Virus record (IMG/VR): IMGVR_UViG_3300038674_000631 | Location: 1 to 37,120 of that record | Origin: a virus | Lineage: Duplodnaviria; Caudoviricetes | DNA length: 37,120 nucleotides | Direction: 5' to 3' (one strand) | Shown: positions 850 through 27,727 of the stretch, piece after piece | Layout of the letters: every line of letters starts with the position of its first letter | Numbering within the stretch: position 1 is the first letter of the stretch | Notes under the pieces: generated by a model | Told to the model about the DNA's origin: nothing | The model's input: only the letters and a program-made list of their open reading frames with translations | The model's database searches: none | Position numbers and translations under genes: made by a program

Positions 850-1176
850 ATGAACAACAATATGAATAAATGGATGGAATTTTCAACCGAGTATGCCAAG
901 CTGATGAACGAAAATTTTCAGGTCATGAACAAGTTCTGGAACGCCTCAATGGAACAGACCAGCGGATTCACCAGAAAGAACATGGAAATGTTTTTTGAAC
1001 ACATGAATCGCAACGCTGAACTCATGCATGAAATGCATCAGACAGCCATAAATTCAAATGATGAAATCAAGGCAATCTTCAAGCAGAATATCGAAAAATT
1101 CAACACTCGCTATCAGAAGATTTATGAAGAAACCATGAAAAGCATTATGCCCAAAACCATGGAAGCCGGCAAATAA
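850..1176 (+). CDS. Phasin-like (PHA granule-associated) helical protein, host gene
   Basis: ATG at 850 after an AGGAG SD; 108 aa, all-helical amphipathic, Met/Glu/Asn-rich; TGC-rich upstream region; own terminator. Confidence 0.5.
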   Translation: MNNNMNKWMEFSTEYAKLMNENFQVMNKFWNASMEQTSGFTRKNMEMFFEHMNRNAELMHEMHQTAINSNDEIKAIFKQNIEKFNTRYQKIYEETMKSIMPKTMEAGK

Positions 1177-10200: not shown

Positions 10201-11149
10201 TTAAAGTCATCTCAAAAAGCACTGCCACTTTTTGGGCATCCGACATGCCTTCTGTCATTTGTGCAAATGCAGCTGGGATGCGGATGCTTAAATCGTCCAG
10301 GATTTGTGGCGAAGCACGACCGATACCGGTTACTATGTCTTCAAATGCCTGCTGCGTTTCAATGCCTTTCAATCGCGCCTTATTTCTAGCGATTTCAAGC
10401 AAATTTGCCATTTTATCAGCATCATTGGTAACGCCAAGAGACATTGCTGCGCTGGCAGTTTTGATCAGACTCATATCATTGATGGTGTTGCCGCTGGCAT
10501 CGCGAAGCTTGTTCAGGATTTCGTCAGCACTTTTACCGACACTTCTTGCATAATCATCAAATGCGCTTTTTGATTCTTGCAGTTGAGCTCCCTGTTTCGC
10601 AAAGTCATATCCCATTTGAACATAGCGATCCATTTTTTCCAAAAATTCTAGGGTTTGATTCGCCGCGAAAGTAAATTCGCCCAATTCTGATTTAAAGGAT
10701 TTAATATGACCGCCTGCTGTTTTCAAAGACTGGCCAAACCTGCCCAAGATTTTATCAAGTGCATTTGTTTTCTTTGCGGCATCGTCAGTATCTTTTGAGG
10801 TTTTTTTAAATTGAGTTGAATTTTCTCTCAGTGCTTGCTCAAGGCTGCTCGTCGCTTTAACAACTTCAGCTAAGCCATAATTTAGTTGCTCTATTCCTTT
10901 CTCTGCATTATTCGTTGTCTTTGTTGTATCAGCTAGCTCTTGCTCCAGCTCTTCAATTGCAGCTACCGCTTTGTCGGTATTCTGAGAAAGATTAGAAGCA
11001 GCCTCGCTGATTTTATCCAGTCCCTTGTCGAGCGGCTCGATCTGCTTGCCTGATTTGCCTAAATCAGACACGGCAGCAGAGGTCTTGCGCAATTCTTCGA
11101 TTGCGTAAGAGCCGTCTGCTTTGATAATGATTTTAACTTCTTTGGTCAT
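7265..11149 (-). CDS. Tail tape measure protein
   Basis: 1294 aa, helical and Ala/Ser/Lys-rich; IVTGIGRASPQILDDL is a TMP-type motif; follows the chaperone genes. Confidence 0.88.
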   Translation of the reverse strand: MTKEVKIIIKADGSYAIEELRKTSAAVSDLGKSGKQIEPLDKGLDKISEAASNLSQNTDKAVAAIEELEQELADTTKTTNNAEKGIEQLNYGLAEVVKATSSLEQALRENSTQFKKTSKDTDDAAKKTNALDKILGRFGQSLKTAGGHIKSFKSELGEFTFAANQTLEFLEKMDRYVQMGYDFAKQGAQLQESKSAFDDYARSVGKSADEILNKLRDASGNTINDMSLIKTASAAMSLGVTNDADKMANLLEIARNKARLKGIETQQAFEDIVTGIGRASPQILDDLSIRIPAAFAQMTEGMSDAQKVAVLFEMTLKEGNAEFEDMGGMTDSSADSFRRLETSWTNLKTSGGELVTNVFEPINVVLAIGMDKAAGLLKSFDDLFTYILNIGKENPIKNMTEAELLEALSDRKKLYDEYKSGFAKTLGEVDSPANSFRQSSSLGVTEKVGKEMQNAFFEQNMLVAEKKVEQINAELNRRSKAVIETTEKNLKNQADAFAKMMIPGFNPAAIESEEDRKKRIKKAEDARNNYIKQINDQEKKISKIFEDSASAYSVFGVNVTPSSKQDNKSYTMPDGTALKTFGVDVKSISSMKEAYKLLLDMSYAAGGLKQTTSEVYEFSQSFLAIKDGEQVNKVLTEFYGTVKDIPPELKKFNDEMAELASNKDAIEEVLEVFKNFSTFDFSENINKLNPFELTDQRFAASMTASMSNIFSGGLLTTDFTNKFIDVTKETSQKAAKEVENPFADAVASAVSDGFRRADFSGFLTNLGSGISGVVSGILTDTIQSVFSKKNTGALASDNKILGGLFKPVYGKDNKLNYGALGQNLAIGAAFSFLSSPGRLFGGSVVHGEEHINTSASLNDQVTQAKELRDQLYIQAGISETTRRLLDEAEFYYAWVRKTKSGNGITSKKTTTYLLEGSNQAQASIDNIKKLQESVMGEQTRRSYDLWQLNRTDSVKALQLSAADAESAYNATFAKNLSESEIADLRNQQAAIENNIVIARQNAELAGKQAPSNYNRNPWNIGGISMYTNQIATYQQQIDALEAKIQEGQDYKYSEADRTSVLKAYEQAKIDLVAAKEAGRTNLMSPFLSNATLGSLTTSDILSQMLGDKSLSDSSGSIQALLPLLKQAGITDMNIARMYADAGSDPAKLYDAGKAELSNLEKALAVYEQIWKDAEQEALDASKTIEEQNAAFERFQTAQNALLQTKDAILQKEQELAAIEKQKLESQRNAQIETALSAIGELDKRGNKMIILSDNDAIVAIDALLEEFADNPEVTAILQKKRQAEVAKAKWGSMT

Positions 11150-11451
11150 TATGATCTCGTGTTTGCCGCTCGTTTTTGTGCTAATGTCATCGGGGCTGAT
11201 TGGCAGAATGTTCTATAAAAAGCTTCATCTATGACTGGATATTTCACTGCTTCAACCTGGGCGATGCAAAATAACAAATAGTCCATTTCATAGACCTGAG
11301 CCGGGGTGTAACCGTAAGCCCTTGCAACCCGCATGATTTTTCGACCATACTTTAGATCGCGCGGCTCGGGTTCTTCGTCTTGCAACGCATCAAAAGATGC
11401 GTAAACCGATTCTTCGATCAGGCTCCGAGAATTCTCGGAGCCAGCTGAGGG
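11149..11451 (-). CDS. Tail assembly chaperone C-terminal extension (lambda T-like), probably reached by -1 frameshift
   Basis: The -1 frame is open from CCC at 11451 to the stop at 11149; motif VARAYGYTPAQVYEM; lies directly before the TMP. Confidence 0.6.
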   Translation of the reverse strand, partial: PSAGSENSRSLIEESVYASFDALQDEEPEPRDLKYGRKIMRVARAYGYTPAQVYEMDYLLFCIAQVEAVKYPVIDEAFYRTFCQSAPMTLAQKRAANTRS

Positions 11452-11834
11452 TCAAGCGCGGCACTCAAAGACGGATTCAATACTTTCTTCTCGAACCAGG
11501 TATTTGCGACAATCCTGACCAGGTCGAAGCTTTCGGAAAAGACTTCCTTGATCTGGTCGCGAGTAAACTGCTTTTCTTTTTTTGGATTGAAAGCGATTTC
11601 AAGAATGTCGAGCGCGTGATTTGTGCTGCGTCTGATCAGATCAGAAATAAGCTGACCCTTTTCAGCGTTTTCCTTTTCAGCTTTTGCATTCTGATCTTCC
11701 AGATAAGCTTCATAAGCATCGTTCTGGGCGACGGTATATTTAAGTTCAACCGGGCTGTTGTCAATTTCTACATAGAGGCGATTACCGGCTTCGCGCCAGA
11801 AATAGGACCCGTTGGTTTTGTTTGTAAGAATCAT
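11418..11834 (-). CDS. Tail assembly chaperone (lambda G-like)
   Basis: ATG at 11834 after GAAAGG; between tail tube and TMP; ends ...LDPQLAPRILGA. Confidence 0.7.
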   Translation of the reverse strand: MILTNKTNGSYFWREAGNRLYVEIDNSPVELKYTVAQNDAYEAYLEDQNAKAEKENAEKGQLISDLIRRSTNHALDILEIAFNPKKEKQFTRDQIKEVFSESFDLVRIVANTWFEKKVLNPSLSAALDPQLAPRILGA

Positions 11835-11850
11835 AAATTGCCTTTCTTTC

Positions 11851-11880
11851 AAAAAATGGGGGGGGAGGTTATCCCCCCCT
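11851..11880 (-). terminator. Terminator/attenuator after the major tail gene
   Basis: Minus strand reads GGGGGGGA-TAACC-TCCCCCCC followed by CATTTTTT. Confidence 0.65.
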
Positions 11881-11905
11881 GAAACCTGAATAGGAGTTTC
11901 GTCCG

Positions 11906-13147
11906 TCAACAAATGAAAAACTCGATGTTATCGTTGCCCTGAGAAGACGGGCGACACTGACCGGTGATGCCGTATCTGAGCAGGTTGTTCTCGTCACGCA
12001 TGCCAGGATTGTCAATAACGCCATGGCGAATGAAAACGAACAGCATAGAACCGGGAGTATTGCCGATTTTGAAGCTGATCGGGATTTCCTTGCGTTCGCG
12101 CAGCAGTGTCCAGAACGGAAACACGCTGTCGCGCTTCGCTTCAGGATCGATGCCAAAAGCATGATCACGGCCATCGATCTTGATCTGCCTGATGCCCTGC
12201 TCGGAGTTGACATCAAGCTGCGGATTCAGTGTATTGCCGGTTTCGAGCGTGATGTTTGCGACAACCAGGGTGTTATCGTTATTGACATGAAAATTCGCGC
12301 GCTGAACGATGTCAGGGCGGCGGGTATCTTTGGCACTAACAGGCACATCCGCATCACCGATATCGTTGAGAATCGACTGGAAGCTGAACGAAAGCTGTGC
12401 AATGCGGCCGGCCGGGGCAGAAAAGGACAGATTGCCACGGGCAGCGCCACCCTTGAACAGCTTGCCGCCAAGGTAATGTTCGAAGAAAACCGACTTGAAG
12501 TCGCCTTCGGCAGCAACGGGGCGGTATCTGATGCCGGGCGGATAAGCGTAGACATACCACTTATCGCCAAGGACCAGTGAGCCGCTGGCAAAAGTCATGG
12601 TAAACGTCGCGCCTTCGTCGCCCAGGGTGATCGGACTTTCAGTGGTAACAACGTTTGCAGTGCTGTTCTGAGTCGTGTCGCCGATGCAGACAACTGATAC
12701 TTCGGCAGTCGCTGAAACGCCGGCCTTTGTTACTTCGATTTTATATATGCGGGGTTCTGTACCGGTGAATGCGCCGGCAGAGGCAACTGTCAGGCCTGCG
12801 AGACCGGTATTGTCATAACCGGCAATGGGGGCTGCAATAGAAGATTCAGCAAGCACTATTTTTGCAAAACCGCAACCTTCAAGAAGCTTGCCCCACTTTG
12901 GCTCGGTGCCGACGATGCCGCTAAGCATTGCTTCACAGACGACGTTAAAGCCGAGAGTTTCGCGGCCGATCATTTTTTTAGCGGCATCAATGCCCTCTTC
13001 AACGATCAATCGTTCGATTTCTTCAAACCCGTATTCGGGGATGAATTTGCCGCAAGGCACGGCATCAGCTTCAGACAGACCGGGATTCGTGTTCGGAGTA
13101 GTTTCAATCCCGGCGCGAAGCTGCATGGAATTTGTTCGGATAGTCAT
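11906..13147 (-). CDS. Major tail tube protein with inserted beta-rich domain
   Basis: 413 aa after gp37. Tube-like N and C parts (GKLLEGCGF; LSFSFQ; ITLETGNTL) flank an insert (GAFTGTEPRIYKIEVTKAG...LVLGDKW). Confidence 0.75.
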   Translation of the reverse strand: MTIRTNSMQLRAGIETTPNTNPGLSEADAVPCGKFIPEYGFEEIERLIVEEGIDAAKKMIGRETLGFNVVCEAMLSGIVGTEPKWGKLLEGCGFAKIVLAESSIAAPIAGYDNTGLAGLTVASAGAFTGTEPRIYKIEVTKAGVSATAEVSVVCIGDTTQNSTANVVTTESPITLGDEGATFTMTFASGSLVLGDKWYVYAYPPGIRYRPVAAEGDFKSVFFEHYLGGKLFKGGAARGNLSFSAPAGRIAQLSFSFQSILNDIGDADVPVSAKDTRRPDIVQRANFHVNNDNTLVVANITLETGNTLNPQLDVNSEQGIRQIKIDGRDHAFGIDPEAKRDSVFPFWTLLRERKEIPISFKIGNTPGSMLFVFIRHGVIDNPGMRDENNLLRYGITGQCRPSSQGNDNIEFFIC

Positions 13148-13162: not shown

Positions 13163-13585
13163 TTACAGGCCGACCGTGCGGCCGATACATATCTGGGCGG
13201 AAAATTCGAGTAGATACGAAATAACGCCCGCTTTATAAGACACTAGGCGGATACCGGTGCAGTTCAAACTTTCGAGGCCCTGGTCGATTTCTTTGCCCAG
13301 GAGTTCGTCATATACGGCTTCGACCTGGTCGTAAACGTCATTTGCCGCCTGCTTTTCGTCGCGCAGGTTCCGGTTGTAGACCAGCACATGAAATTTTCTT
13401 TCCATGATCGGTCGAGGGGTTTTCTGCACCGGCACGTCTTCAAACCAGTAAACGAAGGCTGCCGGGAAAACCAGAACATCCGGCTTGTCGAATCGACCGG
13501 CACTTTCAACGATTCTGAAAATATCCAGGCCTGTAATCGATGCAATCAGCACATCTTCGTTTGCTTTAACATTTAACAGGCCCAT
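13163..13585 (-). CDS. Mu gp37-like tail terminator / head-tail joining protein
   Basis: 140 aa, PAAFVYW...FHVLVYNRNLR pattern; lies before the tail tube gene. Confidence 0.7.
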   Translation of the reverse strand: MGLLNVKANEDVLIASITGLDIFRIVESAGRFDKPDVLVFPAAFVYWFEDVPVQKTPRPIMERKFHVLVYNRNLRDEKQAANDVYDQVEAVYDELLGKEIDQGLESLNCTGIRLVSYKAGVISYLLEFSAQICIGRTVGL

Positions 13586-13588
13586 TTC

Positions 13589-13705
13589 TTAAAACTCCCG
13601 CTGATAACCGATTTCGAATTGTGGTTTATGATTTCCAAGCCCCAGCTTCAGCCAGGCATCTCTGGTTTTTACCGCCAGAGATGCCGACTTGCCATCGCTT
13701 GTCAC
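13589..13705 (-). CDS. 38-codon beta-strand-rich ORF ending EIGYQREF; coupled GTG start or -1 frameshift extension of the upstream gene
   Basis: Not in the ORF track. GTG overlaps the upstream TGA and the ORF fills the gap to gp37. The same frame is open back through A_AAC_CCT at 13744-13738. Confidence 0.55.
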   Translation of the reverse strand: MTSDGKSASLAVKTRDAWLKLGLGNHKPQFEIGYQREF

Positions 13706-14094
13706 TGCGACACTGCGGCCAGAGCTGGGGCCAATGTAGGGTTTACAGAAGCAGTAGTCTTTGGCTGATGGTCCTGCGCAGCCAGGTCTTTAACGAGCAA
13801 TTCTGCGCGGGCTCTTTCTGCAGACGAAAGGGTTACTCCTTCCTGTCTGGCCTGCTCGTCGAGTAGTTTGAGAAATTCAACCCACTTTGCTTCAGGCTTG
13901 ATTTTGCCTTTGCTGGCCATGGCTTCAACAACGCGATAAATGCCAGGCACAACGTCATAAACAAAGCCCATGGCTTTATCCATTGTGTTCAAAAAACCTT
14001 CAGACACACCGAGCTTCGGAAGAATCGGCCTGGCGATCTTGTAAATCTGAATCAGCAGTATGGCTGCAATAAAAAAGAAACCGAGATTATCCAT
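13702..14094 (-). CDS. Holin-like membrane protein (N-terminal TM helix)
   Basis: Hydrophobic N-terminus LGFFFIAAILLIQIY, then an amphipathic helical domain; overlaps the end of the endolysin gene. Confidence 0.55.
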   Translation of the reverse strand: MDNLGFFFIAAILLIQIYKIARPILPKLGVSEGFLNTMDKAMGFVYDVVPGIYRVVEAMASKGKIKPEAKWVEFLKLLDEQARQEGVTLSSAERARAELLVKDLAAQDHQPKTTASVNPTLAPALAAVSQ

Positions 14095-14554
14095 TTTTAA
14101 CTTCCTTGAGTAAGTTTTCCCAGGTCAGGGCAATGTAAGTCCCTGCCTTATCCCTGATCCAACGGGCATCAGGGTCGAATCTGTTTTTTTTGGGTCTGAT
14201 ATCGCCATGCAGACCGCCCTGTGGTCGCCAGTGCGGATAGATGCCGATACCGTTGAAACCATCGAAACGAGTTAAAGCTATGAACTGATCAACAACATTC
14301 ATGCCTTTGACGTAGAAATCAGCAGCCATGCCTTTCGGGTGATATTCACCGCTGTGGCCGGTCAGCTCATAAGCATTCAGAATGATTACCGGCCTGTTGA
14401 CGAACTGACGAAAGGCAAACAGATTAAAAATCAGCTCTCTATGAACCTTGCGCCAGTCGCCCCAGTTTTCTTCAGGGGTAAAGAAGGGTGCAACGGCAGA
14501 CCAGTCTTTATCAGTCATGAGCGGACTTTTTGATTCATGTGTCATCGGTAACAT
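14087..14554 (-). CDS. Endolysin, peptidase M15-type Zn peptidase
   Basis: YHPKGMAADF and GIGIY...LHGDIR match the M15A H-x6-D...HxD pattern. Confidence 0.8.
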   Translation of the reverse strand: MLPMTHESKSPLMTDKDWSAVAPFFTPEENWGDWRKVHRELIFNLFAFRQFVNRPVIILNAYELTGHSGEYHPKGMAADFYVKGMNVVDQFIALTRFDGFNGIGIYPHWRPQGGLHGDIRPKKNRFDPDARWIRDKAGTYIALTWENLLKEVKNG

Positions 14555-14999: not shown

Positions 15000-15425
15000 T
15001 TAAAATTCGAGCAGATGCACTGTTGCCGAGGCGCTCTGCGCACGAAACCAGATGTCGGGAGTGCTGGTAGTTACATTGAAGGCCTTGTAAGACCCTGATG
15101 CAATTGCAAACGGGTAAATGCCGGTCGGCACGGTCCTGTCCGCCCAGTTCAGCGGGTTTCCGATCGGGCCCACAAGCAGAACACGGGTATACAGATTCAG
15201 CGTCGGGCACTTGACTGCAGCCGTTGTGCCGATCTCGACAGACGAGCTCGCAAGAAACTTTTCAATCGGCTGCTCCTGAACCGGCATGGGGTAGCGAAAG
15301 CCGATGCGCTTTTCGCCGCCCTGGTCATCCCAGCCCTCGCGCCATTTCACAATGGCATCCTGGGCAAGCGCAAAGCTGGTAATCAGCAGTGCGGCAAGCG
15401 TTACAATCAGAAGTCTGAATTTCAT
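15000..15425 (-). CDS. Hypothetical protein with Sec signal peptide
   Basis: ATG at 15425 after AAGGA; MKFRLLIVTLAALLITSFALA-QD has n/h/c regions and an AxA site. Confidence 0.65.
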   Translation of the reverse strand: MKFRLLIVTLAALLITSFALAQDAIVKWREGWDDQGGEKRIGFRYPMPVQEQPIEKFLASSSVEIGTTAAVKCPTLNLYTRVLLVGPIGNPLNWADRTVPTGIYPFAIASGSYKAFNVTTSTPDIWFRAQSASATVHLLEF

Positions 15426-17705: not shown

Positions 17706-17729
17706 TTTTTTTCTCCTTGCCGCTTTCAT

Positions 17730-17902: not shown

Positions 17903-18235
17903 ATGGCTATTGACCCCGGATTAGCTAAAGAGGTCGCTTCATACGTCGAATTGATCAAAGTGATAGGATTTCCGGCTCTGATTTTTTTGATCTGGTATCT
18001 CTATCACCGTTCAGAAAATCTCAAATGGGAAAAAAATTTTGAAGCTCAGCGCGAAATGCAGCGTGAAATGATACAGGGCATTTTGAAACAGAGCAGTGAA
18101 GAGCGAGAAAACCAGCTTTTGCGCTGGAAAGAATTTTTGGAAACCTTGTCTTTGCAAACATCTCAGCTTGCGCGGCTAGAAACAAAAATTGACAGCAATG
18201 AATTTTGTCCTATCACAAGGAGGCAAAAAAGGTGA
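17903..18235 (+). CDS. Membrane protein with one TM helix and coiled coil (holin/antiholin-like)
   Basis: AAGGAG SD; IGFPALIFLIWYLY followed by heptads and a C-terminal CP; first gene of the packaging operon. Confidence 0.6.
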   Translation: MAIDPGLAKEVASYVELIKVIGFPALIFLIWYLYHRSENLKWEKNFEAQREMQREMIQGILKQSSEERENQLLRWKEFLETLSLQTSQLARLETKIDSNEFCPITRRQKR

Positions 18236-27434: not shown

Positions 27435-27508
27435 TTGCCTGGTGCGGGATTCGAACCCGCTCCACACGCCCGATACCTAGAATGCTTGCGTGGGTTTCCT
27501 TTCAGGCA
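27435..27508 (-). ncRNA. Degenerate tRNA-like element (acceptor stem and T-arm, no D-arm)
   Basis: TGCCTG/CAGGCA stem; perfect T-arm GCGGG-TTCGAAT-CCCGC; central CCACGC/GCGTG(T)GG stem. Confidence 0.5.
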
Positions 27509-27550
27509 GGTTATTTAATGACGATGTCAGTTTGCTGCTCGTTGTAAACG

Positions 27551-27727
27551 TTACCTGAGGTTTAATTTCAAACGATATTGGTTAATGACCGCCAGCCAGA
27601 TCAGGGCAGACAAAGCAGCATCGTCAGCCGCAAGCTTATTCTCTATTGCTGACACGGCTTCTGACGGGGTCTGTGAATGCACTATCAAATCACGTATTTC
27701 TTCGATTTTCATAAGATTATCTGTCAT
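27551..27727 (-). CDS. 58-aa hypothetical protein
   Basis: MTDNLMKIEEIRDL...; ATGA-coupled to the upstream mini-ORF. Confidence 0.5.
   Translation of the reverse strand: MTDNLMKIEEIRDLIVHSQTPSEAVSAIENKLAADDAALSALIWLAVINQYRLKLNLR

Follow-up and report, generated by a model that had tools for sequence, protein, structure and literature searches.

A putative −1 frameshift extends a likely holin of a Mu-like phage with a conserved tail of plausible outer-membrane function

Programmed frameshifting close to a phage gene's 3′ end is known from lambda G/GT, where, according to the part of the review PMC5009743 drawn on here, slippage yields a major short product and a minor, C-terminally extended one. 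Outer-membrane disruption in the course of phage lysis is the task of spanins, such as the Rz/Rz1 pair and the unimolecular T1 gp11. The sections of PMC6139136 considered here report that 91 of 677 phages (~13%) are without spanins and that an outer-membrane protein could act as an o-spanin. For one spanin-less phage, phiKT, the portion of 10.1101/515445 used here proposes that gp28, a disruptin, disrupts the outer membrane as a small cationic module. The locus described below would share with lambda G/GT the slip toward the end of a phage gene and a minor extended product, but differs in concerning a membrane gene of the lysis cassette, with A_AAC_CCT as its slip site and a beta-type module of 45–71 residues as its extension. 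The words "holin", "spanin", and "endolysin" are absent from the first 300,000 of the 449,034 characters of PMC5009743, and no paper on a frameshift-extended holin was found in the openly accessible literature searched.

The window, that is, the whole stretch of DNA analyzed, is a complete virus record of 37,120 bases from a Mu-like phage encoding a transposase, a transposition protein, Gam, a late activator, and head and tail genes. Large blocks of it align at 70–88% identity with a prophage in a Candidatus Riflebacteria genome (G001), and the same label is carried by three protein homologues; the inferred host is Ca. Riflebacteria. The outer-membrane insertase Omp85 scored above its curated cut-off in 5/5 tail-bearing host genomes tested, indicating that the hosts possess an outer membrane and bearing out the diderm host that the initial annotation presupposed. 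The host Omp85 proteins end in FGSSF. The late genes form two divergent blocks, split at 17729/17903, with protease, capsid, lysis, and tail genes running leftward and terminase and portal genes rightward; Mu late genes, unlike these, run in a single direction. Elsewhere in the window, a gene pair before the tape measure gene (11149–11912, minus strand) has the overlapping −1 frame of the usual G/GT tail chaperone layout, and no X_XXY_YYZ heptamer is present in its last 20 codons. The gene with a signal-peptide-like N-terminus (Table 1) has no family match, is conserved in three other loci (L004, L005, and L061), and was also seen in L075. At the contig end, two plus-strand ORFs without a phage family match (51–1176) are possibly host DNA past the prophage end.

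Table 1. Coordinates of features in and around the lysis cassette of the window
Feature	Position	Strand	Remarks
Holin-like gene, 130-aa short form	14094-13702	−	ORF; overlaps endolysin gene
Single TM helix, residues 4-24	14023..14085	−	Acidic residues before, Lys/Arg after
Slippery heptamer A_AAC_CCT	13744-13738	−	Codons GTA AAC CCT = V117 N118 P119; 11 codons after Pro
GGCC-N8-GGCC hairpin	13717..13732	−	Starts 5 nt after heptamer; present
GTGA overlap	13702..13705	−	Short-form stop overlaps −1 frame GTG; possible 38-aa re-initiation product
−1 frame extension	13589..13738	−	K-P then 49 new residues; stop TAA 13591-13589
Tail terminator gene	13163..13585	−	PF23840; ATG 3 nt past −1 frame stop
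Endolysin, peptidase type	14087..14554	−	phrog_894, E 1.5e-6; overlaps holin-like gene start
Gene with signal-peptide-like N-terminus	15000-15425	−	Between major capsid and head-tail adaptor genes
Second TM gene, with coiled coil	17903-18235	+	Start of terminase block; phrog_23321, function unassigned; omitted from initial annotation

On recheck, the coordinates and translations first assigned to the gene, the heptamer, and the −1 frame all held. The short form was modeled, with low confidence (pLDDT 55), as an all-helical protein in which the N-terminal TM helix is followed by three more helices and a disordered Pro/Ala end; the helical rod behind the single TM helix spans ~85 residues, its helices short and broken rather than long coiled coils. 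A second TM segment was found in none of the 32 homologues. Likewise, none of them (0/32) has a Lys or Arg before the TM helix, while two to three such residues lie within 12 residues after it. The positive-inside rule, by which the charges flanking a TM helix predict its orientation in the membrane, thus predicts an N-out/C-in topology that places the tail in the cytoplasm. The 130-aa protein had no Pfam, PHROG, or NCBIfam match, and 0/32 members of the family matched the LL-H holin profile PF09682 at E 0.1. PF09682 clusters were the nearest to the N-part in the Atlas (score 0.92), and LL-H holins ranked at the top of a Foldseek search with the low-confidence model (pLDDT 55; E 0.07). By functional class, the protein is a small TM protein adjoining an endolysin in which no signal sequence was seen. 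A holin is its likely identity, one that rests on these weak matches. The part of PMC4299906 considered says nothing on the topology of LL-H holins. Used as a query, the protein had no match in first scans of viral and metagenome contigs; among GenBank phages no real match was obtained for the tail or for either of the two N-parts described below, so that these provided no cultured model phage.

Conservation of the slip site was assessed in all distinct loci, 16 in number, with sequence extending to the end of the gene (the window, L001, L003, L007, L009, L010, L011, L013, L014, L032, L044, L045, L066, L074, L075, and L076), with the near-duplicates L002, L023, L034, L036, and L039 counted once. 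AAC CCT lies 10–18 codons before the stop in 14/16 loci. The codon ahead of it is of six kinds (GTA, TTA, GCA, GAA, CTA, and GGC), and the base immediately preceding is A in 13 loci and C in one (L044), so that the constant core is AAC_CCT. In L075 the Asn-Pro pair is lost and C_CCC_CCG stands at the same place, in the same −1 phase, before a tail of 71 residues; L076 has neither slip site nor tail. The site noticed originally in the window is thus kept across homologues, as AAC CCT or, in one locus, as a substitute heptamer. At the protein level, Asn-Pro occurs 10–17 residues from the C-terminal end in 32/33 homologues, the exception coming from a 518-base contig. For comparison, 13 other genes of the window contain 17 Asn-Pro dicodons, two of them AACCCT, and a search of the last 20 codons of 29 window genes for X_XXY_YYZ heptamers returned only the holin-like gene and one gene overlap. 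A DNA-pattern scan yielded 24 loci, seven representing the module and 17 chance; the candidate family member L012 was rejected as a chance match inside a host gene. In E. coli, as reported in the part of PMC4066793 used here, C_CC.Y is among the four shift-prone tetramer types, a stimulator being needed, and A_AA.C_CC.U is not among the 3/64 heptamers that fell below threshold with a strong stimulator. It is highly probable from the sequence comparison that a programmed −1 frameshift at this site is used; its efficiency is probably low, leaving the long form in the minority.

The GGCC-N8-GGCC hairpin pointed out in the initial annotation does exist, but it is no more stable than shuffled sequences (z +0.76), which leaves a stimulator role for it unsupported. 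The window clade (z +0.1 to +0.8), like those of L001 and G024, showed no significant 3′ structure; z ranged from −0.5 to +0.8 over the three clades. In the L010 clade, a stem begins 2–6 nt downstream of the site (z −1.3 to −2.0), with two-sided changes in 4/14 of its pairs among six sequences.

Translation through the slip site would give a long form of 168 aa (119 + 49) with the C-terminus FEIGYQREF. Past the 0-frame stop, the −1 frame has dN/dS values of 0.05–0.30 in nine alignable, non-independent pairs, in which 29, 17, and 81 changes fall at codon positions 1, 2, and 3, respectively; the pair L010–L045 was left out, there being no gap-free alignment. This pattern indicates that the −1 frame is under purifying selection, and the −1 ORF with its terminal aromatic residue, as proposed from the window, is kept across homologues. 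The frame is closed two codons upstream of the slip site in L010 and three codons upstream in L001, which confines the point of entry into it. Downstream, the −1 frame stop and the start of the tail terminator gene are fused in L001 as a TAATG overlap. A search of 1.84 billion proteins with a tail profile of three rows, and hence of low sensitivity, returned 10 matches to repeat proteins and, apart from these, just the GTG-started product of 38 aa, with no fused or stand-alone tail seen.

In the window, the tail consists of a Pro/Gly linker followed by the alternating segments RSVAVTSD, KSASLAVKTR, AWLKLGLG, and PQFEIGYQREF, and has a net charge of +3 and a terminal Phe. Across loci, the tails are 45–71 residues long with a net charge of +2 to +6; their segments, joined by Gly, Asp, and Lys-Pro turns, number four by pattern, or six in L075 (1217–1435, minus strand, behind C_CCC_CCG), even counts that would fit an outer-membrane role. 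The strands so defined are short (7–10 residues) with few aromatics. Of the 14 tails, 12 terminate in F or W and the other two in Ile or Leu; Gly occupies position −6 in most tails, and position −3 is Arg or Lys in the window clade. Outer-membrane proteins bear a C-terminal beta-signal, which the last strand of the tail resembles in sequence. Beta periodicity exceeds that of shuffles in 13/13 tails, weakly (z 0.3–2.1; window 0.5) and among tails that are related rather than independent, while helical periodicity falls below shuffles in 12/13. The reading of the tail as four beta-strands stands as an alternating sequence pattern but not in the AlphaFold monomer (12-row alignment), which shows, at low confidence (pLDDT 54), a helix at 19–34 and no strands. 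Three tail copies submitted to a complex predictor, at this single stoichiometry, scored 0.23, the mark being 0.42, which weighs neither for nor against a trimer. The tail had no Pfam, PHROG, NCBIfam, or solved-structure (PDB) sequence match, the best PDB hit having E 1.3. The comparison with trimeric autotransporter anchors made in the initial annotation fails at the profile level, since none of seven tails matched the Pfam YadA anchor at E up to 1–2. An Atlas cluster lead for the tail, PF24653 Phage_OMP (0.87, 14% of members), was followed into 401 genomes, tail-bearing ones included, of which none (0/401) exceeded the profile cut-off. The tail profile itself gave 10 strong matches in eight of these 401 genomes, each at a locus identified before, and 11 weak ones (E 0.006–0.09), and the tail family was not found outside these hosts among the genomes searched.

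The tail is not tied to a single partner. In L009 and L014 the N-part is a different one, with a score of 2–3 bits on the family profile, but the slip site is the same and the tail closely resembles the one in L013, so that site and tail behave as a portable module. All three loci lie in one genome (G024), which has three lysis cassettes with similar tails on two N-parts.

A six-frame scan of the window identified six lipobox-like ORFs, all of them outside the lysis cassette and lacking a ribosome-binding site; no credible Rz/Rz1-type lipobox gene was thus found in the window, in agreement with the initial annotation. A 75–77 aa lipoprotein is encoded in the G001 and G055 prophages (L053, 5953–6186, plus strand; L061, 12047–12274, minus strand). 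It was rejected as a required o-spanin because neither the window (near 27505–27560) nor the 40 kb surrounding the G050 cassette contains it. When 12 further loci were scanned, a lipobox ORF on the coding strand turned up only in the tail-less L076 (1339–2126, plus strand), where a 29-aa ORF with an eight-residue mature peptide directly precedes the holin-like gene, which is also flanked by a helical gene of 83 aa. This arrangement is a possible alternative outer-membrane module, no more than suggestive as a single case. Lcc6 was dismissed as a precedent for the lipobox ORF, since in the part of 10.1101/2024.01.23.576932 considered Lcc6 is a 65-aa inner-membrane factor and not a tiny lipoprotein. 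A 28-aa hydrophobic ORF lies between endolysin and holin-like gene in L010 (~1040–1124, plus strand) and is missing in L044 and L066. Finally, a second TM gene was present in each of the prophages inspected; the one in the window, at 17903–18235, is separate from the frameshift and could be another holin, lysis gene, or membrane factor.

The initial annotation envisaged one protein that links both membranes as made. The charges in 32/32 homologues speak against this, predicting N-out/C-in, the reverse of an i-spanin, and a tail with this predicted topology and no signal peptide cannot reach BAM by normal export. The reading preferred here, though its chances are judged slightly short of even, is that the tail is an outer-membrane disruptor that becomes accessible only once the holin lesion opens. 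Under this proposal, tRNA-Pro would slip from CCU to CCC at low efficiency, making the 168-residue form the minority. Short and long forms would both be inner-membrane proteins with a cytoplasmic C-terminus, an orientation that keeps the tail from its target. Tails held at the lesion rim would reach the outer membrane once the lesion is open and the wall has been cleared by the soluble endolysin. There they would insert, in the form of cationic beta-hairpins or of an oligomeric beta-barrel assembled spontaneously or through BAM, and the inserted tails would join or rupture the two membranes, doing the job of a spanin. Access only after the lesion would both resolve the topology problem and supply the timing of lysis. 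Granted that the frameshift is used, an outer-membrane role of the tail is judged an even proposition; such a function is plausible on present sequence evidence. A more tentative generalization is that a cassette of slip site and beta-anchor might let some copies of any given holin serve as that holin's spanin, free of lipidation and timed by topology.

A frameshift that is equally real could instead serve a tail whose site of action, as a small beta-sheet module, is the inner membrane or the cytoplasm, where it might oligomerise the holin, line or widen the lesion, bind the endolysin, or act as an antiholin, with the slip rate setting the time of lysis. This account is rather unlikely, but it takes the C-in topology predicted in 32/32 homologues at face value, agrees with the short strands, the scarcity of aromatics, and the lack of an OMP family match, and recalls the setting of a product ratio in lambda G/GT (PMC5009743, in the part used here). 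Against it, a terminal F or W in 12/14 tails and Gly at −6 in most fit the beta-signal consensus of outer-membrane proteins; a tail found on unrelated N-parts is hard to reconcile with a partner-specific regulator, and outer-membrane disruption would be left without a gene. Less probable still is a one-piece spanin made by frameshifting and oriented C-out, as the initial annotation would have it, with an inner-membrane N-terminal anchor, periplasmic helices, and an outer-membrane barrel, the holin then being encoded elsewhere, for instance at 17903–18235. The holin-like gene of L010, L011, and L066 lies between the endolysin gene and a small TM gene before terminase, the place of the spanins in Mu; the modeled rod after one TM helix and the second TM gene of every prophage examined also suit this arrangement. 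The lack of Lys/Arg before the TM helix in 32/32 homologues opposes it, as do the short, broken helices and the nearness of LL-H holins by two methods (Atlas and Foldseek).

The remaining accounts dispense with a frameshift. Re-initiation at the stop-overlapping GTG could make the tail as a separate peptide of 35–40 residues, perhaps a cationic beta-hairpin disruptin, an explanation considered improbable even though the −1 codon at the overlap is GTG or TTG in 9/14 loci, the 38-aa product has been annotated as a gene (P0008), and phiKT gp28 offers the precedent of a small cationic outer-membrane-disrupting peptide (10.1101/515445, in the part used here), in keeping with the tail charge of +2 to +6. 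In L007, moreover, a TAG directly after the slip site falls between site and GTG; it occupies bases 13–15 of a 1130-base contig and may be an error or a null allele. Against re-initiation, the overlap codon is GTA or ATA in 5/14 loci plus L075 (GTG having become GTA in L001, L066, and L075), and ATG, GTG, and TTG are all missing from the whole −1 frame of L009 and L013. It also leaves unexplained the invariant AAC CCT codons, the substitute heptamer of L075, and an overlap stretch that is open in 14/15 tail-bearing loci, when stop codons make up 6.7% of −1 frame codons in 13 window genes. Frameshifting and re-initiation may both operate in some clades. That a single 168-aa gene was broken by an indel, or that the open frame is due to chance, is a concern insofar as all the sequences are metagenomic assemblies and, of four runs compared at the contig level, one had no coverage and none spanned the site, but this reading is extremely improbable and is refuted by conservation: the phase is the same in 15 loci from separate collections, a search of 87 genomes with both profiles revealed no single-frame (fused) form, an L003-type allele on a contig of a different study has the slip site with the −1 frame open, and the −1 frame shows purifying selection.

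Taken as a whole, the sequence comparisons support as real a −1 frameshift that extends the likely holin and is both conserved and under selection. Even if the tail had no outer-membrane role, a lysis gene would here have conserved a frameshift, and at a proline site of an unusual kind. A lysis module that occupies the −1 frame without a start of its own is invisible to gene callers and to lipobox searches, and hidden modules of this kind could explain part of the ~13% of phages counted as spanin-less in the sections of PMC6139136 considered. If the outer-membrane role is true, spanin-less phages would have a further route besides spanins and the disruptin, and replacement of a spanin in this manner would be categorically new.

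The N-part of the extended protein is like the LL-H holins (PF09682) in having an N-terminal TM helix followed by helices, a size of ~130 aa, and a position adjoining the endolysin gene; unlike them, it lacks an HMM match, and no frameshift extension was found reported on LL-H holins. With YadA-type anchors the tail shares four strands per chain by pattern and an aromatic C-terminal residue, but it has no signal peptide, a Pro/Gly linker in place of a coiled-coil helix before strand 1, and no Pfam match, and one relative (L075) has six strands. Unlike the free amphipathic helix of phiKT gp28, as described in the consulted part of 10.1101/515445, the tail is tethered, and its helical periodicity is below shuffles in nearly all cases; like gp28, it is a small cationic module with a proposed outer-membrane-disrupting role in a phage without a recognized spanin. 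The unimolecular spanin T1 gp11 has an N-terminal lipobox and a C-terminal TM segment, whereas here there is no Cys and the TM helix is N-terminal. Rz/Rz1 likewise differs, since the extended protein has no lipobox, a predicted N-out/C-in rather than N-in/C-out topology, and a second frame that would be entered by slippage and in some loci contains no start codon, and no linked outer-membrane lipoprotein gene was found in the window. With these spanins, as presented in the sections of PMC6139136 considered, it nevertheless shares a position in the lysis cassette, an inner-membrane anchor, and a candidate outer-membrane end, and with Rz/Rz1 in particular a second function coded in an overlapping frame.
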